A stretch of DNA of 52,276 nt from Minisyncoccota bacterium (GCA_028712595.1 JAQTPS010000003.1:1-52276), one strand, 5' to 3'. Numbered from the stretch's first letter, positions 185 through 45,002 are shown. The notes: generated by a model not told the origin, from the sequence alone. Program-made: numbers and translations.

Positions 185-342
185 ATATTACCAAAGCGAG
201 GCTTTGGAAAATGTCCCCTTAATAAACCCTTTGTTACCAAGCCCTAGGGAGGAAGTACCTTCCTAGGGCTTGAATCTATTGGGTTAAAAAAGGCCGGGCC
301 TTTTTGTTTCCACGCCATCGCCCTGTCAAAACACTGCTTCGG

Positions 343-371
343 TTGACTTTTGCCCGCAAGGGTGCTATAGT
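343..371 (+). promoter_or_regulatory. Sigma70-type promoter, TTGACT-17-TATAGT with TGC-extended -10
   Basis: TTGACT 343-348 and TGCTATAGT 363-371. The same architecture recurs more than 15 times in the window. Confidence 0.6.
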
Positions 372-471
372 CACAACCTAGCGCGCAATTAGGTGTTCGT
401 TCTTACATTTTTTAGTTCTTTCCAAAAACACCGACTGCGTCCTAACTTCTATCATTTTCACCCCATTCTCT

Positions 472-666
472 ATGGCTAATAAAGCCAATAGTAGGTCTCG
501 AAGGAATCCTAAATCTTCCCGACCTCGGACCAAGAAATCCAAGAAGGGCTCGTGCAAGAAACATTATCGGGTAGTCCAGGAAAAATCGGAAGGAGTTCAG
601 GCATTTGAATTCCTTGAAGGAATTTTCAACGCCTGCGGAAAGGCGGGCCGATTTCAACCGGCGTAA
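472..666 (+). CDS. Small, highly basic protein (64 aa), function unknown
   Basis: ATG 472 is preceded by the pyrimidine box TTTTCACCCC 7 nt upstream. It has its own promoter (343-371) and terminator (684-717). The N-terminal half is K/R/S-rich. Confidence 0.5.
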   Translation: MANKANSRSRRNPKSSRPRTKKSKKGSCKKHYRVVQEKSEGVQAFEFLEGIFNACGKAGRFQPA

Positions 667-683
667 AAAGGTTCTGAAGAAAA

Positions 684-717
684 AGCCAGCTCCATGACAA
701 GGAGTTGGCTATTTTTG
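684..717 (+). terminator. Intrinsic terminator
   Basis: GCCAGCTCC / GGAGTTGGC stem (685-709) followed by ATTTTT. Confidence 0.6.
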
Positions 718-718
718 T

Positions 719-927
719 ACCCAGCGGGGTGGTGGGTTCTGGTGGCGATACAATACTGAAATGTATCACGTATAATTCTATAAGGTTCAATCTACTCTAA
801 ATTACTACGTCGGGTTCACCACCAACATAAATTTTCACTACAGTAAAATAATACAACTTTGTGCCAATCGCTAAAATAACCCCACCAAATAAGAACTTGG
901 TGGAGAATCCACCACCCCCGCTGGGTT
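719..927. repeat. Inverted-repeat-bounded structured element, copy A (~208 nt)
   Basis: 5' ACCCAGCGGGGTGGTGG pairs with 3' CCACCACCCCCGCTGGGT. Internal boxes are CTGGTGGCG, TCACCACCAAC, CCCCACCAAA and TTGGTGGAGA. The 3' end abuts the -35 of the next promoter. Related copies lie at 5128-5334 and 40193-40294. Confidence 0.6.
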
Positions 928-953
928 GACTTTTTGGGCGTTAGTGCTAAATT
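926..953 (+). promoter_or_regulatory. Sigma70-type promoter, TTGACT-16-TAAATT (TGC-extended)
   Basis: TTGACT 926-931 and TGCTAAATT 945-953. Confidence 0.55.
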
Positions 954-1015
954 GGGAACCGGCCTCGGGGAATTTTTTATTTCCCAAATTGTTCATTCAC
1001 AAAAACCCACTATTG

Positions 1016-1065
1016 TCGCTTTAGCCAAAAGATGCTTATTCCTAGGCATTTCTTGGTTATAGCGA
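1016..1065 (+). promoter_or_regulatory. Conserved leader hairpin, copy 1
   Basis: TCGCTTTAGCCAAAAGATGCTTA-TTCC-TAGGCATTTCTTGGTTATAGCGA. It shares an invariant core with copies at 1530, 2132, 42763 and 44044. Confidence 0.6.
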
Positions 1066-1110
1066 TTCGTGTGTCGCTATATTTTTTATTTTTTTTCTTC
1101 TCACTCACAT

Positions 1111-1371
1111 ATGAAGAATCACCGACAAAGGGAAATGGAAAATAAGCTTAGGATGTACTTCCGGCGCAATAGGGGACAACTACTGACCAAAGCCGGGAAA
1201 AAAGATCTTTACGAATATATCTTCCGTCTCCTTTGTAAAGGACTGACAAAGAACTCTCTGTTCAAGGTGATCAAAGAAGAATGTTGTGAGTCTTGTCGAG
1301 AGACAAGAGCAATCTACGATGAGATAGGGATGGACGCCCATGAAACACAGAAGAACGAGTGCTTCCAGTAA
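1111..1371 (+). CDS. Small Cys-containing protein (86 aa), function unknown
   Basis: The ORF-track start 1069 was trimmed to ATG 1111 because the upstream part covers leader RNA. A pyrimidine-rich tract precedes the ATG and a terminator follows at 1385-1419. Confidence 0.5.
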   Translation: MKNHRQREMENKLRMYFRRNRGQLLTKAGKKDLYEYIFRLLCKGLTKNSLFKVIKEECCESCRETRAIYDEIGMDAHETQKNECFQ

Positions 1372-1384
1372 TCAAGAGTAACAA

Positions 1385-1419
1385 AAAGCCAATCCGATAC
1401 ACGGCGGATTGGCTTTTTT
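1385..1419 (+). terminator. Intrinsic terminator
   Basis: AGCCAATCCG / CGGATTGGCT stem followed by TTTTTT. Confidence 0.7.
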
Positions 1420-1430
1420 AGTGTTTACGC

Positions 1431-1458
1431 TTGACTTTTTCTGTGTATATGCTATAGT
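1431..1458 (+). promoter_or_regulatory. Sigma70-type promoter, TTGACT-16-TATAGT (TGC-extended)
   Basis: TTGACT 1431-1436 and TGCTATAGT 1450-1458. Confidence 0.6.
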
Positions 1459-1529
1459 GACCTCCAGACCGTTTGGAGGTTTTGTACTTCCACTAAAAAA
1501 TAGGTTCTTTACAAAAATTCACTTAATAA

Positions 1530-1592
1530 TCGCCATAGCCAAAAGATGCTTAATCAGACCCGTTCAAGTTAGGCCTTTCTTGGCTATGGCGA
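1530..1592 (+). promoter_or_regulatory. Conserved leader hairpin, copy 2
   Basis: TCGCCATAGCCAAAAGATGCTTAA...TAGGCCTTTCTTGGCTATGGCGA, with a 17-nt variable apical region. Confidence 0.65.
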
Positions 1593-1657
1593 ATTGCCAT
1601 GCATTTTCTATTTCCGCGAAATCCTTTGGATCTCGCTTCCTTTTTCCCCTCCTTCCT

Positions 1658-1981
1658 ATGGCAAAATGCCACCAAGACGCTTGTACTTCTTACTACAATG
1701 GATGCAAGAAAAAAGTAAGAAAGAATCTTATGGATTATCTTCTTAAATTGGAAGAGTCCTACAAAGCCGGCAAAATCGAACTTAAAAAATTCAAAGTTTG
1801 CGTCCAGATAAACCTCGACACTCTTGATGTAGCCTGTGGTGTCTGGATAAAATCTCCGGAAGAAAGTATGTTGCGCAATCTTTCTTTTGCCAGAATGACA
1901 GAGCTAGATTGCGAGCGCATTGACGACGAGCTCTTTCTGGACGAATTCCCGAAAGTGAATTTAACGAGCACGAACCGATAA
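1658..1981 (+). CDS. Small Cys-containing protein (107 aa), function unknown
   Basis: The ORF-track start 1409 runs through the promoter and leader hairpin, so it was trimmed to ATG 1658. TTTTTCCCCTCCTTCCT lies immediately upstream and a terminator lies at 1999-2032. Confidence 0.55.
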   Translation: MAKCHQDACTSYYNGCKKKVRKNLMDYLLKLEESYKAGKIELKKFKVCVQINLDTLDVACGVWIKSPEESMLRNLSFARMTELDCERIDDELFLDEFPKVNLTSTNR

Positions 1982-1998
1982 ATACAGCTTTATGCTGG

Positions 1999-2032
1999 GC
2001 GGTGATCCTTTGGGTCACCGCTTTATTTTTTT
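1999..2032 (+). terminator. Intrinsic terminator
   Basis: GCGGTGA / TCACCGC stem followed by TTTATTTTTTT. Confidence 0.65.
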
Positions 2033-2039
2033 CTACCCA

Positions 2040-2067
2040 TTGACTTTTTTTATATATATGCTATACT
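2040..2067 (+). promoter_or_regulatory. Sigma70-type promoter, TTGACT-16-TATACT (TGC-extended)
   Basis: TTGACT 2040-2045 and TGCTATACT 2059-2067. Confidence 0.6.
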
Positions 2068-2131
2068 AACCCCCAGGTTGTTTGGAGCTTTTATGCTTCA
2101 ACTAAAAAACAGGTTCTTTGTAAAAAAGAGC

Positions 2132-2209
2132 GTGTCGTCGTAGCAAATAGATGCTTGAACGAACAAGGTTCTGTTAAAAACCTTAGGCATTTGTTTGCTG
2201 TGACGACGC
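2132..2209 (+). promoter_or_regulatory. Conserved leader hairpin, copy 3
   Basis: GTGTCGTCGTAGCAAATAGATGCTTGA...TAGGCATTTGTTTGCTGTGACGACGC. AGCAAA/TTTGCT covaries with AGCCAA/TTGGCT of the other copies. Confidence 0.65.
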
Positions 2210-2256
2210 ACTTTTATGCATCGCCAGTATTTCTCATTTCCTTCCCATTTTTTCTT

Positions 2257-2661
2257 ATGAAACAGTTCCGTTACTCAACTGATATCTCGCGTCAGACAAT
2301 TGACGACGTTGAGAATTTCCGCCCTCTTGTAAAAATTTGTTTTGAGCTCTGGAAAGAGTTCCAAGAGCACAAGAATAAACGCGCGAGCTCGTCGTGCAAA
2401 GAATTGGAAGGATTGCTGGAATATGCATATGAGAAGCTCAAGAAAATTGGAGAAAATCTAAATTACGATAGGTACTATGGAGATTACGAGCGAGCTCAGG
2501 TCTATGAGCATTGTTTAGAGCTTCGTTGTTGCGAAGAGAAAAGAGTCATTGACCATGCTTGCGCCGGCATACGCGCATTTCTGCGACCGCCCAGAAGGGA
2601 GGTTACAGAATTACGTGGTGTGCCGATAAGAGTAGTAGAGAGAAGTCTTGTTTTTGCATAA
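2257..2661 (+). CDS. Small Cys-rich protein (134 aa), function unknown
   Basis: The ORF-track start 2155 lies inside the leader hairpin, so it was trimmed to ATG 2257, which is preceded by TTTCCTTCCCATTTTTTCTT. Confidence 0.55.
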   Translation: MKQFRYSTDISRQTIDDVENFRPLVKICFELWKEFQEHKNKRASSSCKELEGLLEYAYEKLKKIGENLNYDRYYGDYERAQVYEHCLELRCCEEKRVIDHACAGIRAFLRPPRREVTELRGVPIRVVERSLVFA

Positions 2662-2689
2662 TTGCTTTGCAAAGAAAGCAAGCCGTCGT

Positions 2690-2716
2690 CGCCCCCGAAC
2701 CGAAAGGTGAGGGGGC
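2690..2716 (+). repeat. 27-nt GC-clamped hairpin repeat, copy 1
   Basis: CGCCCCCGAACCGAAAGGTGAGGGGGC folds as GCCCCC/GGGGGC stem, tandem GA/GA, ACC/GGT and a GAAA loop. An identical copy lies at 3167-3193. Confidence 0.8.
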
Positions 2717-2734
2717 GTTGTCATCTAAACAGCA

Positions 2735-2762
2735 TTGACTTAGAACAGCGGAGTGCTAGTGT
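2735..2762 (+). promoter_or_regulatory. Sigma70-type promoter, TTGACT-16-TAGTGT (TGC-extended)
   Basis: TTGACT 2735-2740 and TGCTAGTGT 2754-2762. Confidence 0.5.
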
Positions 2763-2799
2763 AACGGTAGAAACTTTATTCTTTTCCACCCCAAACTAT

Positions 2800-3132
2800 A
2801 TGGTTCCTTTCCCGCGTCAGAGGCCGTACTTTCCGATTGATGCTAAAACAAAAGAGATACTGAAGCGTTTTAGAAATTTGAATGTTGAGGTTAGTGATGC
2901 GGAACTCGCTTCCTTTGACCCAAGGCATTGCATTGCCATGATCCATTCGCTGGCAACAGCGCTGAAACAGAGCAACGATACGCTTGACATCATTCTTGAG
3001 GACGTTCCTCACGACCTAGAGTGCGATGGAGATCAAGCGGGAGGAGAATGCGAATGTCACAAAGAGCGCTGCGTCAAACAAAAAAAGTTGAATGAGTATG
3101 TGTTGGGCGAGCGAGAAGATCCGAATGACTAG
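2800..3132 (+). CDS. Small acidic Cys-containing protein (110 aa), function unknown
   Basis: The ORF-track start 2662 covers the repeat and promoter, so it was trimmed to ATG 2800, preceded by TTCTTTTCCACCCCAAACTAT. Confidence 0.55.
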   Translation: MVPFPRQRPYFPIDAKTKEILKRFRNLNVEVSDAELASFDPRHCIAMIHSLATALKQSNDTLDIILEDVPHDLECDGDQAGGECECHKERCVKQKKLNEYVLGEREDPND

Positions 3133-3166
3133 AAAATCATGTTAAGGTTTAACCTTGGCATAGAAA

Positions 3167-3193
3167 CGCCCCCGAACCGAAAGGTGAGGGGGC
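3167..3193 (+). repeat. 27-nt GC-clamped hairpin repeat, copy 2
   Basis: Identical to 2690-2716. Together they bracket the 2800-3132 cassette. Confidence 0.8.
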
Positions 3194-3210
3194 ATTGTTA
3201 TATGTTTTGC

Positions 3211-3238
3211 TTGACTTATTTCCATTTTGTGGTAAAAC
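3211..3238 (+). promoter_or_regulatory. Sigma70-type promoter, TTGACT-16-TAAAAC
   Basis: TTGACT 3211-3216 and TGTGGTAAAAC ending at 3238. Confidence 0.45.
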
Positions 3239-3328
3239 TTGTTGAGAGAAGTTCTAAGGTTCGTTGAATAATTATAAAATCTCTTTTTTATCTTGCCGGC
3301 GTAGAGAACTGGCTTTCACTCCTTCACC

Positions 3329-3598
3329 ATGAGAGTAGATTCTCTTTCTCTCAAAAAACTTCGGCCTGAAGTTAGAAACTTACTAAATGCAATCAGCCAG
3401 AGAGCTTTTATACAGCCACTTCCAAGATGCAGAGGGAAAGTAATGTATCCCGACAAAAAGACGGCACAGACAGTGCTGAACAATAGAAAATACAGCCATA
3501 ACGGCGTATTGTTGAAAAAATATTTTTGTCCGCTTTGCGGAAAATGGCACTTGGCCAAAAATAAGCATTGCCACCCCACAGAAACCGGTTGGACGTAG
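3329..3598 (+). CDS. Small zinc-ribbon-like protein (89 aa), function unknown
   Basis: A PRCRGK...CPLCGKWH arrangement of Cys/His ligands. Basic composition. Confidence 0.55.
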   Translation: MRVDSLSLKKLRPEVRNLLNAISQRAFIQPLPRCRGKVMYPDKKTAQTVLNNRKYSHNGVLLKKYFCPLCGKWHLAKNKHCHPTETGWT

Positions 3599-3676
3599 TC
3601 GCAGTCATATCAAGGCTTCCCCTTGATAAAGAGAAAGTTCAATGTTCTTTCCAAATTTCTTTCCCCACATATCTTT

Positions 3677-3907
3677 ATGAAAAATACAGTTAGAGAGCTC
3701 GAGGAAGAGCTCTTGAGGGTTGTTAGAAAGTGGCGTAAGGCGCGTCGCAATGGCATCGCAGAAGGGAATTGTTATGAAGAATTTTTTCTCTTACTGCGTG
3801 CATTAAAGATGCATTCACGTCAATGGAGAAAACGAATTCCAAAAGGCGAGATTCTTACACTGGAAGCATTTCTTGGTGGAAGAAAAATTCCGTGGTTGCA
3901 AAAATAG
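3677..3907 (+). CDS. Small basic helical protein (76 aa), function unknown
   Basis: Trimmed to ATG 3677, preceded by TTTCTTTCCCCACATATCTTT. No promoter is evident, so it is probably co-transcribed with 3329-3598. Confidence 0.5.
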   Translation: MKNTVRELEEELLRVVRKWRKARRNGIAEGNCYEEFFLLLRALKMHSRQWRKRIPKGEILTLEAFLGGRKIPWLQK

Positions 3908-3921
3908 TTCTTTGTGTTTTG

Positions 3922-3955
3922 AAACAGCGAGCCCTCAAAAGTTCGCTGTTTTTTG
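3922..3955 (+). terminator. Intrinsic terminator
   Basis: AACAGCGA / TCGCTGTT stem followed by TTTTGTTTT. Confidence 0.65.
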
Positions 3956-4013
3956 TTTTATTTTTATTGTTATCCACGTCGTATTCGTGTACACAATCGG
4001 AAGATGAGGTATA

Positions 4014-8310: not shown

Positions 8311-8594
8311 ACTTGAAAAAACCCAGACAAACCCGATGGTTCCGAGTCTTGCAAAATATGAGTATTTCGCCCACGGGGAAAAGGAGTTTCTTCCGTTGGG
8401 GTCCTTGAATTGAGTAGAAATAAGCCTAAATTTAATGGGTTTTTTGTCGGTCGTACGGTCAGGACGGTAAAAAAGGGTTATCTTTTGGGTAAATCATTGG
8501 TTTACCCTCTGGATCTAAAAATGGTAGCACATTAGGGGGTAGGTTCCAAGGGTCGGGGAAGATACCTGTGGATAACTAAAAGGGGTCAAAATCC

Positions 8595-8622
8595 TTGACT
8601 TTTTAGATTACTGTGATACAAT
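8595..8622 (+). promoter_or_regulatory. Sigma70-type promoter, TTGACT-16-TACAAT (TG-extended)
   Basis: TTGACT 8595-8600 and TGATACAAT 8614-8622. A perfect DnaA-box 9-mer (TGTGGATAA, 8567-8575) lies just upstream. Confidence 0.6.
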
Positions 8623-8706
8623 GCCACTTAGATAAACGACTTACTTGCGGTTCCTTGTCAGAGTATCTTCAATAGAAATTCTTCTACTTCTTTTCTCCCA
8701 TTCAAC

Positions 8707-13251: not shown

Positions 13252-14031
13252 ATGTACGCGAAAAAATCACTGGGGCAAAATTTTTTAAATTCAAAAACAG
13301 TTGCAAGCGAGATTGTTCGCGCTGGGGAACTTTCGCCTACCGATACCGTTCTCGAAATCGGGCCGGGGAGGGGATTTTTGACCGAAGAACTTTTGGGAAC
13401 CGGCGCGCATGTGGTTGCCATCGAAAAAGATGACCAATTAATTCCGTTTCTTTCCGAAAAATTTGCCGATGCAATCACAAAAAAGCAATTTACTTTGGTT
13501 CACGGCGATATTGTAGAACTTCTTGAAACAAAAAAACTTGTAGTGCCTAGTCCTTACAAAGTTATCGCTAACATTCCGTACTACATCACCGGATTTATTC
13601 TTCGCGCATTTCTTGAAGCCGAAAAGAAACCAGAGCGAATGGTTTTGATGTTGCAAAAAGAAGTTGCTGACCGCATTGTCGCACGCGATAAAAAAGAAAG
13701 TATTCTCTCTATCGCAGTAAAAGCATATGCAACACCACGCATGGTGAAAAAAGTACCAGCTAGGTATTTTACTCCGGAGCCAAAAGTTGATTCCGCCGTG
13801 CTTTCCCTTGAAAATATCTCTAGCAAAAACTTCTTAAATCCGTCCGCTGAAGCAGTTTTTTTCGACATTCTTAAAAAAGGCTTTGCCCATAAGCGTAAAA
13901 AACTCGCCGGAAATCTAAAAGAACTCTTTGGCGACAAGACGGTTCCGCTACTCAAGCAAGCGGGGATTGACCAAAACGCTCGCGCCGAGGATGTTTCTCT
14001 CGACCAGTGGCTTCTCCTCGCTCGCCCATAA
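13252..14031 (+). CDS. rsmA: 16S rRNA (adenine1518/1519-N6)-dimethyltransferase RsmA/KsgA
   Basis: LGQNFL N-terminal motif, SAM-binding VLEIGPGRGFLT and NIPYYIT. Confidence 0.92.
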   Translation: MYAKKSLGQNFLNSKTVASEIVRAGELSPTDTVLEIGPGRGFLTEELLGTGAHVVAIEKDDQLIPFLSEKFADAITKKQFTLVHGDIVELLETKKLVVPSPYKVIANIPYYITGFILRAFLEAEKKPERMVLMLQKEVADRIVARDKKESILSIAVKAYATPRMVKKVPARYFTPEPKVDSAVLSLENISSKNFLNPSAEAVFFDILKKGFAHKRKKLAGNLKELFGDKTVPLLKQAGIDQNARAEDVSLDQWLLLARP

Positions 14032-14205
14032 AAACGTTTGTTTTGACAGGGAGCCCATATCCACAGAAAGTCCATAATTTCTATACCCCTTGCGCTTTTT
14101 ATTTGCTATACTATAAAAGACAATCAGGTTTTGTTTTGAGTTTTAAGAAAACTTTTTTCTATCGCGTTTACATTCTAAATTTCCACCCCTCAAATAACTT
14201 CTAAT

Positions 14206-16836
14206 ATGCGTAATTTCCTCACCAAAAGTACCATAATTCTCCTAGGAGTTGTTTTGCTTTTGGGTGGGGCTCTGCCTGTATTCGCGCAGTTGGTCCTAAG
14301 TAGCAGTAACGACCAAGCGCATACTGGCCCTGGCACCTCAACCTTGACTACAAACCCATCGTCAACTTCGGGCGTTTCGCATGCATTTGATGACGCCGCT
14401 CAAGCAAGCGCAATAGAAAGCACTAAGGGGCCTAGGGGGTCAATTTCAAATCAGGATTTTTATGATCCAGGAACCAACGGAGAACCACCCGTAAATACAG
14501 CTAACTCAATAGAAGACCCGGATGACAATGTTGCCCTTCGTGGCTTGGGTACTATGTGTTCTGCCAACATTTTAGCTTACGGTTTGTCTGCGGGGGCACT
14601 AGCTGGTTTAAATGCTACAGACCTTGGTCTTGTTGGGGCTACCGCCGGAACGGTCGCTCCGGGGACCGAGGCGACAATCCTTGGTACTGGAGGTACTACA
14701 GGGATAGGAAACGTTGCGGCGTTGGTTGAGGGAGGAGCTGGAAGTGTTCTTGACGCAGGACTAACCGTTGCTGCTACGGCGGCTAAGTTTGCTTTTGGCA
14801 AAGCTATGTATTTCACATGTGCTCCAATTGCTATTTACTGGCTAGCATACACACCAGCATCTTTTCTTCTTAGTTTAGCGGTAAGACTTTTTGATTTCTC
14901 CATTTCCCTTAGCATGGATAATGGTTACCTCACTATGCCTTTCATTCAGGATATGTGGACAACCATAAGAGATCTCTCTAATATGTTGTTTATTTTTGTC
15001 CTAGTTTACACAGGAATTAGGACAATGCTTGGAGCAGAGGGTGACTGGAAAAGATCCGTGTTTAAAGTGATAATTATTGCCCTTTTGCTTAATTTTAGTC
15101 TCTTCTTCGCGCAAGTAGCAATTGATGCCGGGAATACTTTTGGAACATGGGTATATAGCAGTATGGGAGCAGACCCAACCGGAGCAGGACAGACAAGAAA
15201 TCTGCACGGTGCTTTTGTTAAATCATTCAAGTTGGGGAATTTCGTACCTTCCGACCAAGGACTTAATACAAACTTCTGGTCGGGGTTTGGTGTAGTCAAT
15301 TCTATATTTTTGTTCCTCCTTGTCGCAATATTAAACATCGTTGCTGCGTGGGTATTTTTGCAAATTGCATTCATTTTTATCGGACGATTGCTGGCTTTTT
15401 GGACATTAATGATTTTAGCCCCAGCTGCTTTCGTTGCAAATACTCTTCCAAAGTTTGAAGGATATTTCAGCGAGTGGTTGAATACTCTTGTGAAGCAGGC
15501 TTCCTTGGCTCCACTCTTCATGATTATGCTCTACATAATCATGAAAATTATGGGGCCAGTACAACAACTCATGAAAAGCACGCCTGCCGCGGATGACATG
15601 TCCTTAGCAGGAACAATTGTCATGCCTCTACTTGGAGCAATCACAGTTTTATTTGCACTCACAAAAGCAAAAGACTTTGCAGTAGACTGGGCTGGGGCTT
15701 TTGGAGAAATAGGGAAGAAGATCGGTGGTACAGTAATGGGTCTTGCTGGCAACACGGCACTTGGAGGAGCCGGGTTTGTTGGACGCAGGGTTGTTGGCGG
15801 AGGAGCCGATGCACTACTAAAAACAGGGGCACTTCAAAAGGTTGCATCTAGCCAAAGCAAATTGCTTCAATATAGTGGTATTACGAGTCTTGCAGGAGGA
15901 AGCGTGGCGGCAGCAGACAAGGCTAGAACAGGGAGTTGGGATGCTCGTAATTCGTCATTGATGAACAACCAGTATGTAAAAAGTGGTTTGAAAGAGGCAA
16001 GGGTTGATTTCGGAAAAGCTGGTGGAAGGGGTGGATACATGCAGGAGGAGAAGGACAATATTAAGGAGGCGAAGGACAAAGGAAAATTGCTGGGAGTTAC
16101 AGACAAAGAAAAAGGAGACAAAGAACAAGAAATCAGGGTTGACGTGGAGAAAGAATTGCAAAAAGCAATGAGTAAAAATCTTGAGAGCGAAGAGAAGCTT
16201 AGGGACGCCGACAAGAAACTACTCGAAGCCAGAGAAAAGACAATAGAGGCAGAAAAGAGTCTCTTGAAGAAAGAGAAAGAGGTGGAAGAGCTTAAAGAAA
16301 AAAATTCTAGAGAAGCGCCGGAGCTTGCCAGAAGGCTCAAAGAAGCCCTGGATAAGGGTGATCAGGAAACCATGGAAGAAATAAGTGGATTCTTAAGGGT
16401 CCGGCACGACGACATGATGAAGGGGAATCAAAATCTCGGCGAACTAAGAGGTAATTTTGAGTCTGCAAGGAAAAAAGAAGCGGTTTTTGGGGTCAATAAA
16501 GAAACTCTTTTGAAAGAATCTACCTTAACGCGCGAGAAGCTAGAAAAACTGAGGAGCCCTAAGGCAGTAGAGAATAGGATAAAAGAATGGGTTAATTCTG
16601 AAAACTTGAGACGCCAGGTGATAGCGGCAGGAGCTACAGCTTCAAGGCATTTTATTGTTTCAAGGTCTTCTCGTATAAAATTTATCAGACAGGCAATTAA
16701 AGATAAAACTTCTCAAGAGAAAGACAAGGAAACGGTAGATAAGGCAATGGAAATTTTGGCCCAGCAAGCAGAAAAAAAGAAACGAGAAGAGGAAGCTTCT
16801 CAGGGGACGGCTTCCAGCGGAGACAAGGGCAATTAA
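14206..16836 (+). CDS. Large polytopic membrane protein with a Lys/Glu-rich coiled-coil tail; VirB6/TrbL-like by topology and context
   Basis: Signal peptide, Gly/Ala/Thr-rich region, several TM helices, then a ~300-aa charged C-terminus. It is the first gene of the T4SS-like block. The pyrimidine box TTTCCACCCC lies upstream. Confidence 0.6.
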   Translation: MRNFLTKSTIILLGVVLLLGGALPVFAQLVLSSSNDQAHTGPGTSTLTTNPSSTSGVSHAFDDAAQASAIESTKGPRGSISNQDFYDPGTNGEPPVNTANSIEDPDDNVALRGLGTMCSANILAYGLSAGALAGLNATDLGLVGATAGTVAPGTEATILGTGGTTGIGNVAALVEGGAGSVLDAGLTVAATAAKFAFGKAMYFTCAPIAIYWLAYTPASFLLSLAVRLFDFSISLSMDNGYLTMPFIQDMWTTIRDLSNMLFIFVLVYTGIRTMLGAEGDWKRSVFKVIIIALLLNFSLFFAQVAIDAGNTFGTWVYSSMGADPTGAGQTRNLHGAFVKSFKLGNFVPSDQGLNTNFWSGFGVVNSIFLFLLVAILNIVAAWVFLQIAFIFIGRLLAFWTLMILAPAAFVANTLPKFEGYFSEWLNTLVKQASLAPLFMIMLYIIMKIMGPVQQLMKSTPAADDMSLAGTIVMPLLGAITVLFALTKAKDFAVDWAGAFGEIGKKIGGTVMGLAGNTALGGAGFVGRRVVGGGADALLKTGALQKVASSQSKLLQYSGITSLAGGSVAAADKARTGSWDARNSSLMNNQYVKSGLKEARVDFGKAGGRGGYMQEEKDNIKEAKDKGKLLGVTDKEKGDKEQEIRVDVEKELQKAMSKNLESEEKLRDADKKLLEAREKTIEAEKSLLKKEKEVEELKEKNSREAPELARRLKEALDKGDQETMEEISGFLRVRHDDMMKGNQNLGELRGNFESARKKEAVFGVNKETLLKESTLTREKLEKLRSPKAVENRIKEWVNSENLRRQVIAAGATASRHFIVSRSSRIKFIRQAIKDKTSQEKDKETVDKAMEILAQQAEKKKREEEASQGTASSGDKGN

Positions 16837-34607: not shown

Positions 34608-34683
34608 ATATTTAATAATTATCCTATTTACTTATCAGCATAGCTGAAATTGGGGAAAAAGAAAAATGCCGTTAGGCACCGAA

Positions 34684-34729
34684 GGTATAGGTTGATTCAA
34701 GTTTGGCCAAACTTGAATCAACCTATACC
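34684..34729. repeat. 46-bp perfect palindrome in a divergent intergenic region
   Basis: GGTATAGGTTGATTCAAGTTTGG | CCAAACTTGAATCAACCTATACC with no spacer. ATACCGAGGT (34725-34734) also pairs with ACCTCGGTAT (34787-34796). Confidence 0.9.
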
Positions 34730-34883
34730 GAGGTGTTACAATAGATTATGTTGAAAAATACATTCCGAACCCTCAAAACTTCCATTACCTCGGTATTGTT
34801 TCTTGCTATAAATAATACTTATTTATAGCTTCCCCACGTAGTCTTTTTATCAGCCCAAATAACGCTTTTTAAGTATTAGTACA

Positions 34884-39599: not shown

Positions 39600-39655
39600 T
39601 GTCCTTAGTTGTACAAACACTGCCATTTGGCAGATTCATACCCACATACATACTT

Positions 39656-40294: not shown

Positions 40295-40307
40295 TTGTTT
40301 GCCTCCA

Positions 40308-40335
40308 TTGACTTTTCTGTGTTTTATGCTAAAAA
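40308..40335 (+). promoter_or_regulatory. Sigma70-type promoter, TTGACT-16-TAAAAA (TGC-extended)
   Basis: TTGACT 40308-40313 and TGCTAAAAA 40327-40335. Confidence 0.55.
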
Positions 40336-40393
40336 GAAAGCCGGCTAACACAAGTTCTTTACAACTCTTTTTCACTTCTTTCCCCAATACTCT

Positions 40394-41284
40394 ATGCCTT
40401 TAAGTAAATCTGACAAGGTTTTTCTCTTTGTTGGAGCAATTCTTGTGGTGTTGTTCTTCGCAGTCTTGGTTTTGTTTAAGTTTGGTGTTGTCGGCGCAAA
40501 AGCAGCGACTCTTGCCCAAGATTCCAAAGCAAATACAGGCGCAGGCGCGCTTTTGGTTGCCGACACAGAGTCGAGCGACCCGTTGTTCTCAAAAAGTTCT
40601 TCTGGCTCGTTCCCAGAATACATAAAAGTTACACATACTTGTAACTGGGAATGGGTCGGAGATTGTGTTATCGCAAGAACCGGTCCGGGCGACGAATACC
40701 CACATGTGACGCTTCTTAATGAAGCAGGAAGACTTAGAAATGGAGCATCATTCCATGTACTTGCATCGGCAAAAGCAAAGGATGACTCCACTTGGTATCA
40801 GTTGGAGGTTTCATCTGCATACGGGCGAATCGTAAGCAAATGGTATGTTAGAGCCGACCAAGTTGAAGAAAAGATATACTCCAGAATAGATCCTGAAAAT
40901 GACGACATAAAAAATATCAGAGTAAATATTGGAGAACAAGCAATCTATTTTTTGGAAGGGGACAACCTTATAAAGTCCTCGCTCATCTCAACAGGAAGAA
41001 ACGACAGTACCCCGCGAGGACAGTTCTACATATCAAAGAAATATCCAGTTAGACTTATGGAGAATCTTCCTAAAAAAGGAGGTCTGCCGTATACATATTT
41101 TGTTCCGGATGCTCAGCAATTTTCTTCGACGTCAGAAGGATATGGTTACTATTTGCATGCGGCGCTTTGGCACAATGATTTTGGAAAGACATATTCTCAT
41201 GGATGCATTAACCTGCCTCCTGATGTTGCCGAATGGGCTTACGACTGGACATCTGGAAGTGGAACCTCCGTGTTCATTAAGTAA
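40394..41284 (+). CDS. L,D-transpeptidase (YkuD domain) with an N-terminal anchor and SH3-like domain
   Basis: Catalytic signature YYLHAALWHNDFGKTYSHGCINL. TM anchor. The pyrimidine box CTTCTTTCCCCAATACTCT precedes the ATG. Confidence 0.85.
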   Translation: MPLSKSDKVFLFVGAILVVLFFAVLVLFKFGVVGAKAATLAQDSKANTGAGALLVADTESSDPLFSKSSSGSFPEYIKVTHTCNWEWVGDCVIARTGPGDEYPHVTLLNEAGRLRNGASFHVLASAKAKDDSTWYQLEVSSAYGRIVSKWYVRADQVEEKIYSRIDPENDDIKNIRVNIGEQAIYFLEGDNLIKSSLISTGRNDSTPRGQFYISKKYPVRLMENLPKKGGLPYTYFVPDAQQFSSTSEGYGYYLHAALWHNDFGKTYSHGCINLPPDVAEWAYDWTSGSGTSVFIK

Positions 41285-41306
41285 TCAAGGAGGAAGAGGA
41301 GAAGCA

Positions 41307-41341
41307 GGGCCGGCGTACCACGGATACGTCGGCCCTTTTTG
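41307..41341 (+). terminator. Intrinsic terminator
   Basis: GGGCCGGCGTA / TACGTCGGCCC stem followed by TTTTTG. Confidence 0.7.
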
Positions 41342-41349
41342 ATATTGCA

Positions 41350-41378
41350 TTGAACATTTTTAATAGGTGTGGTAGAAC
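41350..41378 (+). promoter_or_regulatory. Promoter TTGAAC-17-TAGAAC
   Basis: TTGAAC 41350-41355 and TAGAAC 41373-41378. Confidence 0.4.
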
Positions 41379-41416
41379 GAATCCAGAAGTTCTTCTATTT
41401 TCTCCCCACATTTCGT

Positions 41417-41890
41417 ATGACAACAACTCAAGATGTCGCTACTTGTACTGACGATGAATTTTCTATAATTTTAGCAGAGCTCAAAGACCCCGGAGACGCC
41501 CCGAATCTTTTGAGAGAAGCTTATGGAAACAAAAATCGTCAGTCGCGGATTCTTAAAAGGTGGAACAAACTCTCACACATTGAGTTATCCAAGGCTCCTT
41601 TAGAGAGAGGGCCACTGATAAGAGTTTTTGATAGGTGTCCTCCCGTAGGCACATCGCGAGAAGCTACTAAGGAAAAAATAAACGAGGTGGCATGGCGAAG
41701 TGCCAACAACGCAGACGGCCAACAACAGGGAGCATCTGTTAGGAATATGCCTGGAAGTAGGCAAGCCGGAAACGCGAGCCCTCCAAACAGCGCATCCTAT
41801 CCGCCACTCTGGTTTTATTTGTTGTGCGTCGTGGCGATTGTCGCATTTGCCCTTTTTGTTAAGGCACTTGTTGGGTGGAACTTGCGTTAA
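41417..41890 (+). CDS. Tail-anchored membrane protein (157 aa), function unknown
   Basis: Trimmed to ATG 41417, preceded by TTTTCTCCCCACATTTCGT. A single C-terminal TM helix, LWFYLLCVVAIVAFALFV. Confidence 0.6.
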   Translation: MTTTQDVATCTDDEFSIILAELKDPGDAPNLLREAYGNKNRQSRILKRWNKLSHIELSKAPLERGPLIRVFDRCPPVGTSREATKEKINEVAWRSANNADGQQQGASVRNMPGSRQAGNASPPNSASYPPLWFYLLCVVAIVAFALFVKALVGWNLR

Positions 41891-41911
41891 CTTGTGCCAA
41901 GAACAAAGTAA

Positions 41912-41945
41912 TAGCCACTCCTTCACACGTGGGGTGGCTTTTTCT
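41912..41945 (+). terminator. Intrinsic terminator
   Basis: AGCCACTCC / GGGGTGGCT stem followed by TTTTTC. Confidence 0.6.
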
Positions 41946-41952
41946 ATACCCG

Positions 41953-41980
41953 TTGACATTTTATAGTTTCGTGGTATTTA
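41953..41980 (+). promoter_or_regulatory. Sigma70-type promoter, TTGACA-16-TATTTA
   Basis: TTGACA 41953-41958 and TGGTATTTA 41972-41980. Confidence 0.5.
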
Positions 41981-42028
41981 TGTAGGTAAGCGAACTGTTC
42001 TTTACTTCTTTCTTTCCCCCCATTTTCT

Positions 42029-42217
42029 ATGGCGCACCCTGATGGTCCAGAAGTTTGCCCCTCTTGTATCGCTGGTCGGCGCGAAGCTCCCAGTCCCGCT
42101 GTGAGTAAAATGCGACAAGAATCTTTGTTGAACGCTACGAGAAAATGGGAGGCGCGCAAATTTCAACAAACAAAAGAAAGACAGGAATGCATAAAGCGTA
42201 AGTGCGGAGTACGCTAA
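42029..42217 (+). CDS. Small basic Cys-containing protein (62 aa), function unknown
   Basis: ATG is preceded by CTTTCTTTCCCCCCATTTTCT. A CPSC pair sits near the N-terminus and C..KC near the C-terminus. Confidence 0.5.
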   Translation: MAHPDGPEVCPSCIAGRREAPSPAVSKMRQESLLNATRKWEARKFQQTKERQECIKRKCGVR

Positions 42218-42238
42218 TCAAAGCAGGGAATCATCGGC

Positions 42239-42281
42239 AGGACCGGACAACACAGTTTACTGTGAAGTCCGGTCTTTTTTG
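42239..42281 (+). terminator. Intrinsic terminator
   Basis: AGGACCGGAC / GTCCGGTCT stem followed by TTTTTT. Confidence 0.7.
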
Positions 42282-42287
42282 TATCAC

Positions 42288-42315
42288 TTGACTTTTTATA
42301 TTCTTGTGGTATTTT
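42288..42315 (+). promoter_or_regulatory. Sigma70-type promoter, TTGACT-16-TATTTT
   Basis: TTGACT 42288-42293 and TGGTATTTT 42307-42315. Confidence 0.5.
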
Positions 42316-42358
42316 TGCAAACAAGTAGTCCTTTTTATTCATTTCCCCTTATCTTACT

Positions 42359-42640
42359 ATGGTCGCAATAGATGGAACTGGAACTAGTTCGTCGGCAAAC
42401 CCAAATGCTCAACATCCCGATATTGCAAGACTCGAAAGGGAATGGCAGTTCAGAAAGAAAAAGATGTGGGGCACGATAAGGATGATCGCATGGATATTAT
42501 TTGCGGTCTTTACCTTAACCGCATTGCCGGCCGCCCTACTTCTTGGGGCAGCAGTGCACTCTGTGGTGCCGATTCTGATAGTCCTTGGGATTATCGGGGT
42601 TTGTGTCTGGAGATTTGTGGTCAACTACAGAAATAACTAA
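42359..42640 (+). CDS. Small two-TM membrane protein (93 aa), function unknown
   Basis: ATG is preceded by TTCATTTCCCCTTATCTTACT. Two hydrophobic helices. Confidence 0.6.
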   Translation: MVAIDGTGTSSSANPNAQHPDIARLEREWQFRKKKMWGTIRMIAWILFAVFTLTALPAALLLGAAVHSVVPILIVLGIIGVCVWRFVVNYRNN

Positions 42641-42658
42641 CAAGATTGCCACAACCAT

Positions 42659-42691
42659 CAACACCCTATTCATAGAATAGGGTGTTTTTTG
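42659..42691 (+). terminator. Intrinsic terminator
   Basis: ACACCCTATTC / GAATAGGGTGT stem followed by TTTTTT. Confidence 0.75.
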
Positions 42692-42697
42692 TACCTA

Positions 42698-42725
42698 TTG
42701 ACATTTTTGTTGATTATGATACAGT
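42698..42725 (+). promoter_or_regulatory. Sigma70-type promoter, TTGACA-16-TACAGT (TG-extended)
   Basis: TTGACA 42698-42703 and TGATACAGT 42717-42725. Confidence 0.5.
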
Positions 42726-42762
42726 TCTAGTCAGATAAAGACCTTTGCAAATTCGTTCGAAG

Positions 42763-42815
42763 TTCGCCAAAGCCAAGAGAAGCTTGATAGATAAGCTTTT
42801 GCTGGCTTTGGCGAA
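42763..42815 (+). promoter_or_regulatory. Conserved leader hairpin, copy 4 (variant)
   Basis: TTCGCCAAAGCCAAGAGAAGCTTGA-TAGA-TAAGCTTTTGCTGGCTTTGGCGAA. Same architecture as copies 1-3, with compensatory ATGC>AAGC / GCAT>GCTT changes. Confidence 0.55.
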
Positions 42816-42869
42816 TAGGCACTTATGTCTCCACCGAAGCGCATATTTACTTCCTTCCCCAATACAAAT

Positions 42870-43349
42870 ATGCAAACACAAATTCTTGCCTGGCTCTTCA
42901 AAGACCGTGGCATAGTTGTTAAATGGTTTTCTGCCCTGACTACCACACTTTCAAAAATGTTTGACCTCGTGGCCACTACATTTTCAAAAGTGTCTGAGTT
43001 GGCTTGGTGGGCACTGGCCTTGGCGCTTGTCGTTCTGACCGGCGTGGCAACATTTTCTCTCTACGTTGGCGCAGCCGTCGTCGGCATATTGCTAATCGTG
43101 CTCGTAGCTACTGCCAAATCGGGACTCGGAATGATTCAGACTCTCGGAGGGGCAATAAGCAACGCGGGACACAACAGCGATTTCGCCAGCGCGGATGATA
43201 TTTCTTCGGACGACGAAGAAGTTCCGCTCGAAGACAATGCCGACGCGAACGATGATGAAATAGACGACGAACCAAATGATGGTATGCGACGTGCCGCCGA
43301 AAGGGGAGCACTCGCTGCCGGATTTAGAAGTCGTCGGATTTCTAGATAA
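42870..43349 (+). CDS. Membrane protein with an acidic C-terminal tail (159 aa), function unknown
   Basis: Trimmed to ATG 42870, preceded by ACTTCCTTCCCCAATACAAAT. Two TM helices and a DDISSDDEEVPLEDNADANDDEIDDEPND tail. Confidence 0.6.
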   Translation: MQTQILAWLFKDRGIVVKWFSALTTTLSKMFDLVATTFSKVSELAWWALALALVVLTGVATFSLYVGAAVVGILLIVLVATAKSGLGMIQTLGGAISNAGHNSDFASADDISSDDEEVPLEDNADANDDEIDDEPNDGMRRAAERGALAAGFRSRRISR

Positions 43350-43367
43350 CTTCAAAAAATTGTGCTT

Positions 43368-43405
43368 CAGGGACCTCGCTTCGGCTTGGTCCCTTTCTGT
43401 TTTTA
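43368..43405 (+). terminator. Intrinsic terminator
   Basis: AGGGACC / GGTCCCT stem followed by TTCTGTTTTT. Confidence 0.55.
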
Positions 43406-43409
43406 CCCC

Positions 43410-43437
43410 TTGACATTTCCTGTATATATGCTATACT
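43410..43437 (+). promoter_or_regulatory. Sigma70-type promoter, TTGACA-16-TATACT (TGC-extended)
   Basis: TTGACA 43410-43415 and TGCTATACT 43429-43437. Confidence 0.6.
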
Positions 43438-43491
43438 CTTAATAGTTAGTCAAAAAGCTCTTTTATTTCCTACCTTTTCCAAACAAACAGT

Positions 43492-43818
43492 ATGGAAAAC
43501 ACACAAAAAGTCGTTCTTGCTGTTTTAATTCCAGCGAGCTGCGTTTCTTCATTTATTCTTGGAGTATTCACAGACTCAAACGAATTTCTCAGTATGGCGA
43601 TACTTCTTTCTCTCCTTACTTTTCTCATCGCTTGCTCGACTGCGCAAATAGTCGAGGCGGTCTCGAAGATTGTGAAATTGGTGAAAGCAAAAATTCACCT
43701 TTCCAAGATCGTCAAAAGAATTCAAGCGATGAACCCAGAGTACCAAGAATGCCTCGAAGTTATGGAGGCAAGAAAAGCAAATTACGCTGTTTATTGGAAA
43801 ATGTTGAGTCAAATCTGA
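43492..43818 (+). CDS. Small two-TM membrane protein (108 aa), function unknown
   Basis: Own promoter and terminator. Two N-terminal hydrophobic helices and a basic helical C-terminus. Confidence 0.6.
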   Translation: MENTQKVVLAVLIPASCVSSFILGVFTDSNEFLSMAILLSLLTFLIACSTAQIVEAVSKIVKLVKAKIHLSKIVKRIQAMNPEYQECLEVMEARKANYAVYWKMLSQI

Positions 43819-43854
43819 TTCACATATCAACCGATAACGGCAATACAAAAACAA

Positions 43855-43887
43855 AAAGACCATACACCGAGGTGTTGGTCTTTTTTC
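43855..43887 (+). terminator. Intrinsic terminator
   Basis: AAAGACCA...TGGTCTTTTTT with inner ACACC/GGTGT pairing. Confidence 0.7.
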
Positions 43888-43975
43888 ATATCAGCTCAAT
43901 TCTTTTTCTTGGCTTGCTTCGCCTGTAATGAACCAATGCGCGCCAACGTCTTTTAGGGAAGAGAGAATTAACCCC

Positions 43976-44004
43976 TTGACTTTTTCTTGGGAGTATGCTA
44001 CACT
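43976..44004 (+). promoter_or_regulatory. Sigma70-type promoter, TTGACT-17-TACACT (TGC-extended)
   Basis: TTGACT 43976-43981 and TGCTACACT 43996-44004. Confidence 0.55.
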
Positions 44005-44043
44005 AGCACTTAGATAAGTTAAATATGCTCTTTGAAGTTTTGT

Positions 44044-44113
44044 GGGCTCGTCATAGCCAAAAGATGCTTAATTAGAGCTTGAAATATAGGCATTTGTTGG
44101 CTATGACGACGCC
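44044..44113 (+). promoter_or_regulatory. Conserved leader hairpin, copy 5
   Basis: GGGCTCGTCATAGCCAAAAGATGCTTAA...TAGGCATTTGTTGGCTATGACGACGCC. Confidence 0.65.
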
Positions 44114-44194
44114 ACCTAAACCCTCCGGGTTTTCGTCTCCATAGTATTGGAAGAAGATATTCTTTCCTTTCCCTCAAATTTTCCCCCCAATCCT

Positions 44195-44923
44195 ATGGCA
44201 AACGATAACCCAGTGGTCCTTCATTTGAATCGCAAGTTGGTAAAATTCTTTGTATGGATTGTCGCGATTGCGATAATCCTTTGGCTCCTTTGGCCCTTCT
44301 TTAAGGTCATCTGTGTGAAGTACAAAGGAGAGCTAACTATCGGAGTCAATACTCCGTGCGTTAATTGCGAAGTGAAGAAAGAAGAGCCGAAGCCACAAAA
44401 AAAGACCTATCCTGCTAAGCAGGTAGCATCTCAACCAGCACCAGCTCCTGTGCCAGAGGAGCCAACTTGGTTCGGTAGCCCCATTCCTCTTCCTGTGGTT
44501 GTGAAGAAGCTGGAACCGGTACGAACATATCGACGATATGTTCCGCCCTATAGGCCTTCTTATCCATACAGACCGCCCTACCGTGAGCCCGAAATTGTGC
44601 AACGGTTTTACGATACGACCATTCATAATGGACCGTACCAACCATCGGCGCAACCGGCATCAACGTCGACTACTGTGAATGTGCAGCAGACAACGGTTAT
44701 AAGCAACACCATCTCTGCACAACCAACACAGCCGACGCCGGCACAACAGCCTCCAGTAGGGATTACAAACAACGGGTCTACAGGGAATCCAAACACCGCA
44801 GTTGGAGCTAGTGGAATTACGAACGGAGCAACTACGGGAACGTCACAGCCCCCAGCGGGAATTACGGGTCAAGGAAATGGTTCAACCGCGAACCAAAATG
44901 GTAGTTGGACATTCCACGAGTAA
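44195..44923 (+). CDS. N-terminally anchored Pro/Thr/Gln-rich protein (242 aa), function unknown
   Basis: The track TTG start 44147 was trimmed to ATG 44195, preceded by TTTTCCCCCCAATCCT. TM anchor FFVWIVAIAIILWLLWPFF. YRPSYPYRPPYREP repeats. Confidence 0.65.
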   Translation: MANDNPVVLHLNRKLVKFFVWIVAIAIILWLLWPFFKVICVKYKGELTIGVNTPCVNCEVKKEEPKPQKKTYPAKQVASQPAPAPVPEEPTWFGSPIPLPVVVKKLEPVRTYRRYVPPYRPSYPYRPPYREPEIVQRFYDTTIHNGPYQPSAQPASTSTTVNVQQTTVISNTISAQPTQPTPAQQPPVGITNNGSTGNPNTAVGASGITNGATTGTSQPPAGITGQGNGSTANQNGSWTFHE

Positions 44924-44938
44924 CTTTACGGGAAAAGG

Positions 44939-44978
44939 CAAGTAGTCGATTAAGCCTAGAAACTTAATCGACTACTTG
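44939..44978 (+). terminator. Perfect 16-bp stem-loop after the 44195-44923 ORF (no adjacent U-run)
   Basis: CAAGTAGTCGATTAAG-CCTAGAAA-CTTAATCGACTACTTG. Confidence 0.45.
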
Positions 44979-45002
44979 ACCCGCTCCTGTATTTTTTAAA
45001 GT

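Follow-up and report, generated by a model that had tools for sequence, protein, structure and literature searches.

A pyrimidine box held at a fixed distance from the start codons of orphan accessory genes in a Candidatus Yonathbacteria-like Paceibacteria genome

Our analysis of a 52 276 nt stretch of the Minisyncoccota bacterium assembly GCA_028712595.1 (JAQTPS010000003.1:1-52276; hereafter the window) identified a short pyrimidine box, of the type UUUCCCC, which stands just upstream of the ATG of approximately 14 genes. The motif is genuine, keeps a fixed position and had not been described before; its distribution is confined to orphan accessory genes of this one genome. We tentatively interpret it as a Shine-Dalgarno (SD)-independent RNA element that acts in cis in the translation initiation region of accessory-gene mRNAs, which are leadered and monocistronic; this role in translation is predicted from the sequence. 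The window is a chromosome segment around dnaA from a landfill metagenome, where its depth was approximately 7.4, and it belongs to an uncultured, Candidatus Yonathbacteria-like member of the Paceibacteria (Parcubacteria, candidate phyla radiation (CPR)). Its DnaA (26180-27538) was 85 % identical to the DnaA of Candidatus Yonathbacteria metagenome-assembled genomes, and the best 80 dnaA loci were all from Parcubacteria/Paceibacteria.

The pattern TCCCC-N7-11-ATG was matched 16 times in the window, compared to 5.08 +/- 2.23 times in 100 dinucleotide-preserving shuffles, none of which reached 16 (maximum 11). Eight of the nine intergenic plus-strand TCCCC occurrences stood 8-10 nt 5' of the first ATG of an open reading frame (ORF) of 62-296 aa (starts at 1658, 3677, 40394, 41417, 42029, 42359, 42870 and 44195), and the ninth lay in the loop of a small hairpin (TCAAGG...CCTTGA) approximately 60 nt 5' of the 3677 start. 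About 120 of the roughly 7950 intergenic plus-strand positions have this TCCCC-to-ATG spacing, and a binomial calculation would put the probability of eight in nine arising by chance at approximately 1e-14. The original prediction had claimed that the tract is locked in position to start codons; this was confirmed by the shuffles, by the intergenic occurrences and by the spacing across the 14 units listed here. All of the sequences it quoted were found at their positions, and the boxes it listed at 1658, 3677 and 40394-44195 stand, those at 14206 (16 nt from the ATG) and 8707 (TCTCCC) being weak. The boxes, all on the plus strand, are given below with those promoters and neighbouring features that were located:

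40375-40385 (+), box CTTCTTTCCCC, 8 nt before ATG 40394 (YkuD L,D-transpeptidase, 296 aa); promoter 40308-40335, TTGACT-16-TAAAAA
41398-41407 (+), box TTTTCTCCCC, 9 nt before ATG 41417 (157 aa, C-terminal transmembrane (TM) segment); promoter 41350-41378, TTGAAC-17-TAGAAC; terminator of the preceding unit 41306-41336
42005-42021 (+), box CTTCTTTCTTTCCCCCC, 7 nt before ATG 42029 (62 aa); promoter 41953-41980, TTGACA-16-TATTTA
42342-42348 (+), box TTTCCCC, 10 nt before ATG 42359 (93 aa, two TM segments); promoter 42288-42315
42850-42860 (+), box CTTCCTTCCCC, 9 nt before ATG 42870 (159 aa, two TM segments); promoter 42698-42725; in-frame ATG upstream of the start at 42825
44179-44188 (+), box TTTTCCCCCC, 6 nt before ATG 44195 (242 aa, N-terminal TM segment); promoter 43976-44004
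3656-3666 (+), box TTTCTTTCCCC, 10 nt before ATG 3677 (76 aa)
1636-1649 (+), box CTTCCTTTTTCCCC, 8 nt before ATG 1658 (107 aa); in-frame ATG at 1586, within the leader hairpin of this unit
2237-2246 (+), box TTTCCTTCCC, 10 nt before ATG 2257 (134 aa)
2780-2792 (+), box variant TTTTCCACCCC, 7 nt before ATG 2800 (110 aa)
455-464 (+), box variant TTTTCACCCC, 7 nt before ATG 472 (64 aa)
8687-8699 (+), weaker box CTTCTTTTCTCCC (TCTCCC), 7 nt before ATG 8707 (250-aa orphan lipoprotein, lipobox LVGC); promoter 8595-8622
14180-14189 (+), weak outlier TTTCCACCCC, 16 nt before ATG 14206 (VirB6/TrbL-like, first gene of the type IV secretion cluster)
39635-39643 (+), weak instance TTCATACCC(ACAT) (CCCACAT), 12 nt before ATG 39656 (163 aa), which the original prediction had not listed

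Counted from the last C of the tract, the ATG lay 6, 7, 7, 7, 7, 8, 8, 9, 9, 10, 10, 10, 12 and 16 nt away in these 14 units. Of 17 leadered units, 14 thus had a run of three or more C whose end lay 6-16 nt from the ATG, and in 12 of these it lay 6-10 nt away, which is where an SD sequence would be, as had been predicted; the leadered units 1111, 3329 and 43492 are pyrimidine-rich and have no such run. Thirteen of the 14 box units had T at -1, and the G-poor tract that occupies approximately the final 20 nt of the leader has the consensus YTTYTTTCCCCA(A/C)(A/T)T, with A falling to 7-17 % at -17 to -13 and C reaching 43-47 % at -13 to -11. The tract itself is 7-17 nt long, and in TTTTCACCCC, TTTCCACCCC and TTTCTCCCC it carries an insertion of one or two bases.

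Each of the box genes is monocistronic and has its own near-consensus sigma-70-type promoter (TTGACTTTTT, 16-17 nt, TGnTAnnnT), and in the units inspected the ORF is followed by a G+C-rich hairpin and a T run, an intrinsic terminator that is mostly strong. Leaders are approximately 30-190 nt long and the -10 element lies 43-190 nt from the ATG, so the distance from promoter to box varies about sevenfold (about 25-170 nt) while that from box to ATG is nearly constant. This suggests that the start codon, rather than the promoter, is the reference point of the motif. When the 14 leaders were aligned, they could be matched solely at the pyrimidine tract and T-1, and the proteins downstream showed no mutual similarity, and on this basis gene duplication was rejected as the source of the likeness. 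Thermodynamic folds gave the -20 to -1 region a mean predicted unpaired probability of 0.64-0.95 in 12 of 15 units, above that of the rest of the leader. Taken together, the non-randomness, the register to the ATG, the unalignable leaders and the predicted openness point to a motif that is under selection, takes the start codon as its reference and acts as single-stranded RNA.

Initiation elsewhere in the lineage was examined using 80 dnaA loci and 80 further loci around VirB4 orthologues from metagenomes (160 loci, 2.4 Mb). In addition to rnpA, yidC, dnaA, dnaN, ruvC, yebC, ruvB, tsaE and polA, the window encodes KsgA, UvrD, a PilB-type ATPase, a class A penicillin-binding protein, a Trp/Tyr-family (class Ib) tRNA synthetase and a VirB4/VirB6/TraG-type secretion cluster. 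Core genes such as these appear, from their upstream sequence, to be leaderless, translationally coupled or provided with short A-rich leaders. Many first genes of the window and its relatives have a TATAAT-like hexamer 6-7 nt before the ATG, which indicates that they are leaderless; among the core genes, those at 13252, 22996, 31786, 34028(-) and 46912 have a -10 hexamer at this leaderless spacing. Operon-internal genes are preceded by A-rich, G-poor sequence without a box. GGAG or GAGG was present at -20 to -3 in 4 % of window genes and in 0-10 % of genes in most of the 80 dnaA loci, and neither GGAGG nor AGGAG peaked at SD distance in the 80 dnaA or the 80 VirB4 loci. Synteny with the two closest relatives (87 % VirB4 identity) extends over the secretion cluster, dnaA and dnaN, and starts in these relatives are leaderless throughout. 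These results fit the reported loss of the anti-SD in this group, since the 16S rRNA of uL1-lacking Parcubacteria has no CCTCCT and no replacement signal was named (PMC9297842), and Paceibacteria lack uL1 and Der and mostly lack Era (PMC12641178). They also fit the GeneMarkS-2 'group C' pattern, which denotes leaderless initiation (PMC6028130). The original prediction was therefore correct in describing the core genes as leaderless or A-rich, with GAGG before 4014 and 5735 only, and in stating that the tract, being composed of U and C alone, is unable to pair with CCUCC. Its statement that the box replaces the SD specifically did not hold, as the whole lineage is without an SD signal. The proposal of a distinct initiation signal was upheld in so far as the distance to the ATG is fixed and that to the promoter variable, and failed in so far as the box is not a genome-style ribosome-binding site across the 160 loci.

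If our tentative interpretation is right, the tract would be an SD-independent docking or standby site that sets the 30S subunit (or the 70S ribosome) on the start codon, and the box would stand on the mRNA where the SD helix forms in other bacteria. The likeliest contact would be a component that binds single-stranded pyrimidines, such as ribosomal protein bS1, and a G-rich rRNA segment would be a less likely one; we prefer the version in which the landing site is protein-mediated. Core genes would manage without a box because they are leaderless, coupled or preceded by short A-rich leaders. The S1 protein of E. coli reportedly binds RNA that is single-stranded and rich in pyrimidines, and the 3' end of 16S rRNA, itself pyrimidine-rich, is among its targets (Boni et al. 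1991; Draper and von Hippel 1978; Dahlberg and Dahlberg 1975). CPR bacteria keep a short bS1 of three to four S1 domains (PMC9297842). No rpsA gene was found in the window.

Several observations weigh against this interpretation. The leaders of dnaA and dnaN are short, A-rich and boxless in the window as well as in the closest relatives, so that the box is not required for leadered initiation. TCCCC showed no peak 6-11 nt before starts in the 160 related loci, and any general ribosomal partner is therefore not widely exploited; the CCC-containing pyrimidine tracts that did fall in register in these loci mostly preceded spurious small antisense ORFs. A role as a lineage-wide ribosome-binding site was rejected on the basis of this missing peak and of the leaderless starts of the closest syntenic relatives. 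S1-type enhancers usually tolerate variable spacing, whereas that of the box is tight. Furthermore, the sample comprises approximately 14 instances in one 52-kb window of one genome, and the units at 1658 and 42870 each have an in-frame upstream ATG, which leaves their starts ambiguous.

A re-invented SD would account for the same register by other means. Here the 16S rRNA would lack CCUCC and an accessible G-rich segment, 5'-UGGGGAAA-3', would pair with UUUCCCCA, the segment belonging to a 16S 3' tail that has been replaced or to the helix 26 loop, whose conservation is specific to Parcubacteria. In favour of this, the box keeps a tight distance to the AUG that resembles that of an SD, the group is reported to have lost its anti-SD, and Parcubacteria show unusual conservation of helix 26, the element in contact with the SD helix (PMC9297842). 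Altered 16S tails also occur in other CPR clades, with UCUCC and UCGCC in place of CCUCC. However, leadered genes throughout the lineage should use such a site and none do in the 2.4 Mb of relatives, the core leadered genes of the window itself ignore it, and turning a pyrimidine tail into a purine one would take a large change. We consider this explanation improbable, and it is similarly doubtful that an independently evolved, sequence-inverted SD system gives new or acquired accessory genes their translation in an otherwise leaderless organism.

Five units (1111, 1658, 2257, 42870 and 44195) share a long leader hairpin with arms AGCCAAAAGATGCTTA ... TAGGCATTTSTTGGCT. The copies, all on the plus strand, are located as follows:

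44047-44110 (+), hairpin of unit 44195, between promoter and box
42763-42815 (+), hairpin of unit 42870
2134-2207 (+), hairpin of unit 2257
1529-1593 (+), hairpin of unit 1658
1015-1066 (+), hairpin of unit 1111, whose leader is pyrimidine-rich without a C run

Alignment showed a stem of 23 pairs in all five copies, with compensatory changes at six pairs, and several G.U pairs are invariant and can form in the plus-strand transcript only. The genes behind the copies are unrelated. The hairpin was found neither in the 160 related loci nor in IMG/VR, and against Rfam it gave only generic hairpin-to-miRNA chance matches (E up to 5); the window as a whole has no match to Rfam 15 at gathering score. 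Candidate roles for the hairpin are stabilisation of the 5' end, cleavage by RNase III and protein binding. Homology over approximately 190 nt, including a small hairpin just past the predicted transcription start, links the leaders of units 1658 and 2257 (1431-1657 and 2040-2256, +), whose proteins are unrelated. The hairpin copies before unrelated genes and this leader homology together indicate that leader modules have spread among unrelated genes inside this genome, as judged from their sequence.

Such spread lends some weight to the view that the box has no specific function. A G-poor, stop-free pyrimidine leader would then merely keep the initiation region unstructured, and the C run would be left over from a promoter-leader cassette on which it hitch-hiked as the cassette spread to new or acquired genes. 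The homologous leaders of 1658 and 2257 and the five shared hairpins show that modules did spread, units 1111, 3329 and 43492 are pyrimidine-rich without the C run, and the codon usage of the box genes is atypical: their G+C content at third codon positions (GC3) is slightly higher (0.45, compared to 0.40 in core genes), and their codon usage lies outside the range between random halves of the core genes. Against this, the leaders are otherwise unalignable, a relic would not hold a register of 6-10 nt while leader sequence and length diverge, and A or U could equally give an open leader, as in the core genes. A compositional or hitch-hiking origin is hard to reconcile with a conserved register in unalignable leaders, and we regard it as unlikely.

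The main rival to our interpretation is a trans-acting regulator of translation for which the box would serve as operator and which would repress or activate a set of accessory genes together; it could be an RNA-binding protein (for example one of the KH or CSD type that binds single-stranded pyrimidines) or a small RNA (sRNA) with a G-rich seed. The box is restricted to orphan accessory units, which lie in two islands and at two outlying positions, and an operator would explain why accessory genes alone carry it. The core leadered genes and the relatives have no box, the box overlaps the expected ribosome footprint in the manner of translational operators, and the 23-bp hairpin of five units suggests a common regulatory architecture. 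However, no candidate regulator was identified, the box genes have no common function and the motif is short. The intergenic GGGGAA-type complements in the window were the opposite strands of the boxes themselves and one site at 34836 (minus strand), where no promoter or terminator signature was found, so that no convincing G-rich antisense or sRNA partner was present in the window. We judge this reading to be possible, if doubtful.

The site at 34836 lies in a long intergenic region upstream of yebC (34608-34883, -), which has two strong hairpins together with UGGGGAAG (34836) and UUUUUCCCCAAU (34656). The latter resembles a plus-strand box, precedes a five-codon ORF and sits 5' of what is likely the yebC promoter; this box-like tract on the minus strand is probably coincidental.

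Least probable is a signal read in DNA or at transcription, namely a repressor operator, a Rho utilisation (rut) site or an attC-like cassette recombination site. The tract is C-rich and G-poor, resembling rut sites, and the islands are cassette-like arrays of unrelated ORFs, some of them behind imperfect hairpins. However, the box keeps its register to the ATG rather than to the promoter. Sites of the rut type are C-rich, G-poor and unstructured over approximately 60-80 nt with no register to a start; tracts of 10-17 nt are much shorter than this, and even the full range of 7-17 nt has a fixed register. Integron cassettes are promoterless ORFs with attC sites (RYYYAAC/GTTRRRY cores) and an integrase, unlike the units described here, every one of which has its own promoter and, where inspected, its own terminator. 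No integrase was found among approximately 40 window proteins scanned, the arms of the hairpin do not match the attC core consensus, and its invariant G.U pairs can form in the plus-strand RNA only.

Compared to known initiation systems, the box is similar to an SD sequence in being a short motif 6-10 nt before the start of leadered mRNAs within a stretch predicted to be single-stranded. It differs in being U/C rather than purine, with the same sense as the canonical anti-SD instead of its complement (the GGAGG-like purine core that would complement CCUCC is absent), and in being limited to a minority class of genes. Leaderless initiation of the GeneMarkS-2 group C type is the dominant mode in the lineage; the box genes are set apart from it by the box and by their leaders, since they have a -35/-10 pair 43-190 nt upstream instead of a -10 hexamer approximately 6-7 nt before the start. 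The bS1 enhancers and standby sites of E. coli rpsA, Q-beta and AU/U-rich leaders are likewise single-stranded, G-poor and pyrimidine-rich, lie next to the start and work without SD pairing, and both the composition and the predicted unpairedness of the box agree with this description. Known S1 sites are, however, U/A-rich, farther upstream and loosely spaced, whereas the box is a C4 run in tight register. The A-rich motif of Bacteroidota (GeneMarkS-2 group B; PMC6028130) is another non-SD motif, approximately 9 nt from the start in an SD-free organism, but it precedes nearly all genes including operon-internal ones, whereas the C/U-rich box occurs on accessory monocistronic units only. It is the core leadered genes of the window, not the box units, that resemble this A-rich type. 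Regions targeted by sRNAs or proteins, such as the GGA sites of CsrA and the targets of UCCC-loop sRNAs of Staphylococcus, share with the box a motif that overlaps the ribosome footprint on unrelated mRNAs. The Staphylococcus sRNAs pair with the SD, and the polarity of the box is reversed in that the C-rich motif is on the mRNA and not on the regulator.

A position-locked C-rich motif is a concrete, mutable handle on how start codons are found on leadered mRNAs without an SD in the large CPR branch that lacks uL1 and the anti-SD. The box is also of use in annotation, marking likely true starts, because stop-free pyrimidine leaders cause ORF finders to extend box genes upstream to TTG or GTG starts. 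If it is true that the motif is specific to orphan accessory genes, it would inform how such genes gain expression signals in reduced genomes.

The box ORFs have gene-like features (a YkuD domain, a lipobox, TM segments, flanking promoters and terminators), which indicates that they are real genes where this can be judged. They appear from homology searches to be orphan accessory genes, the search covering the two proteins at 40394 and 8707: the YkuD protein had distant YkuD domain matches only, in genome contigs and among 5.8 billion clustered proteins, and the 8707 lipoprotein had no match among the same 5.8 billion. The N-terminus of the VirB6-like protein was not conserved across the 80 VirB4 loci. 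The original prediction had assigned the box to small, membrane, secreted or island genes. A subset of genes is indeed marked, and the tie to membrane or secreted products did not stand: eight of the 14 box proteins have a hydrophobic segment and six do not, so the link to secretion appears loose, and what the box genes share is better described as being accessory orphans, each with a strong promoter and terminator to itself. The islands (300-4000 and 40300-45000) have near-identical, strong promoters (TTGACTTTTT...TGCTATAsT), and their products are small Cys-rich soluble proteins and small membrane proteins. A prophage origin of the islands was rejected, as there was a single weak match to a PHROG of unknown function and the hairpin had no match in IMG/VR. 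The intergenic region 8311-8590, between an M23/LysM peptidase gene and unit 8707, is unusually long (approximately 400 nt) and G-rich, and it contains GGGGAAAAGGAG and CGGGGAAGA, without an Rfam match.

No rRNA or tRNA gene was found in the window, and a 16S gene of the lineage was found neither there nor in any of 213 loci. Two scans of the whole collection for non-canonical 16S tails, anchored on the 1492 site and helix 45 and requiring a non-canonical base after GGATCA or after TGG, returned Verrucomicrobia, Gracilibacteria/Peregrinibacteria and eukaryotic 18S sequences and no Parcubacteria; this implies that Paceibacteria keep ...TGGATCAC or deviate elsewhere in the pattern. Logan contigs of the source run (SRR22315508) compared to a CPR 16S end yielded just fragmentary mixed-community contigs, those 16S contigs at a depth of approximately 8.3 being Gracilibacteria-like. 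A KsgA/RsmA rRNA adenine dimethylase gene is present in the window at 13252-14031 (+), immediately 5' of the secretion cluster, so the lineage has probably kept the modification of the helix 45 GGAA loop despite the reported anti-SD loss.

Among the other CPR clades in the set of 16S 3' ends examined (loci L084-L123), Gracilibacteria/Peregrinibacteria have the tail GGATCATCTCCTT, and a second Patescibacteria clade (L094, L103, L108 and L111) has GGATCATCGCCTTTTCC. The decoding-centre sequence was GTACTCAC in 10 of 11 CPR 16S ends, compared to GTACACAC in other bacteria, the eleventh (L108) being a locus too short to cover the site. In L094 (1980-6124), from another CPR bacterium, three of the four protein genes beside the rRNA operon were T-rich and purine-poor just before the ATG, a hint of possible pyrimidine-rich initiation regions in other parts of the CPR.

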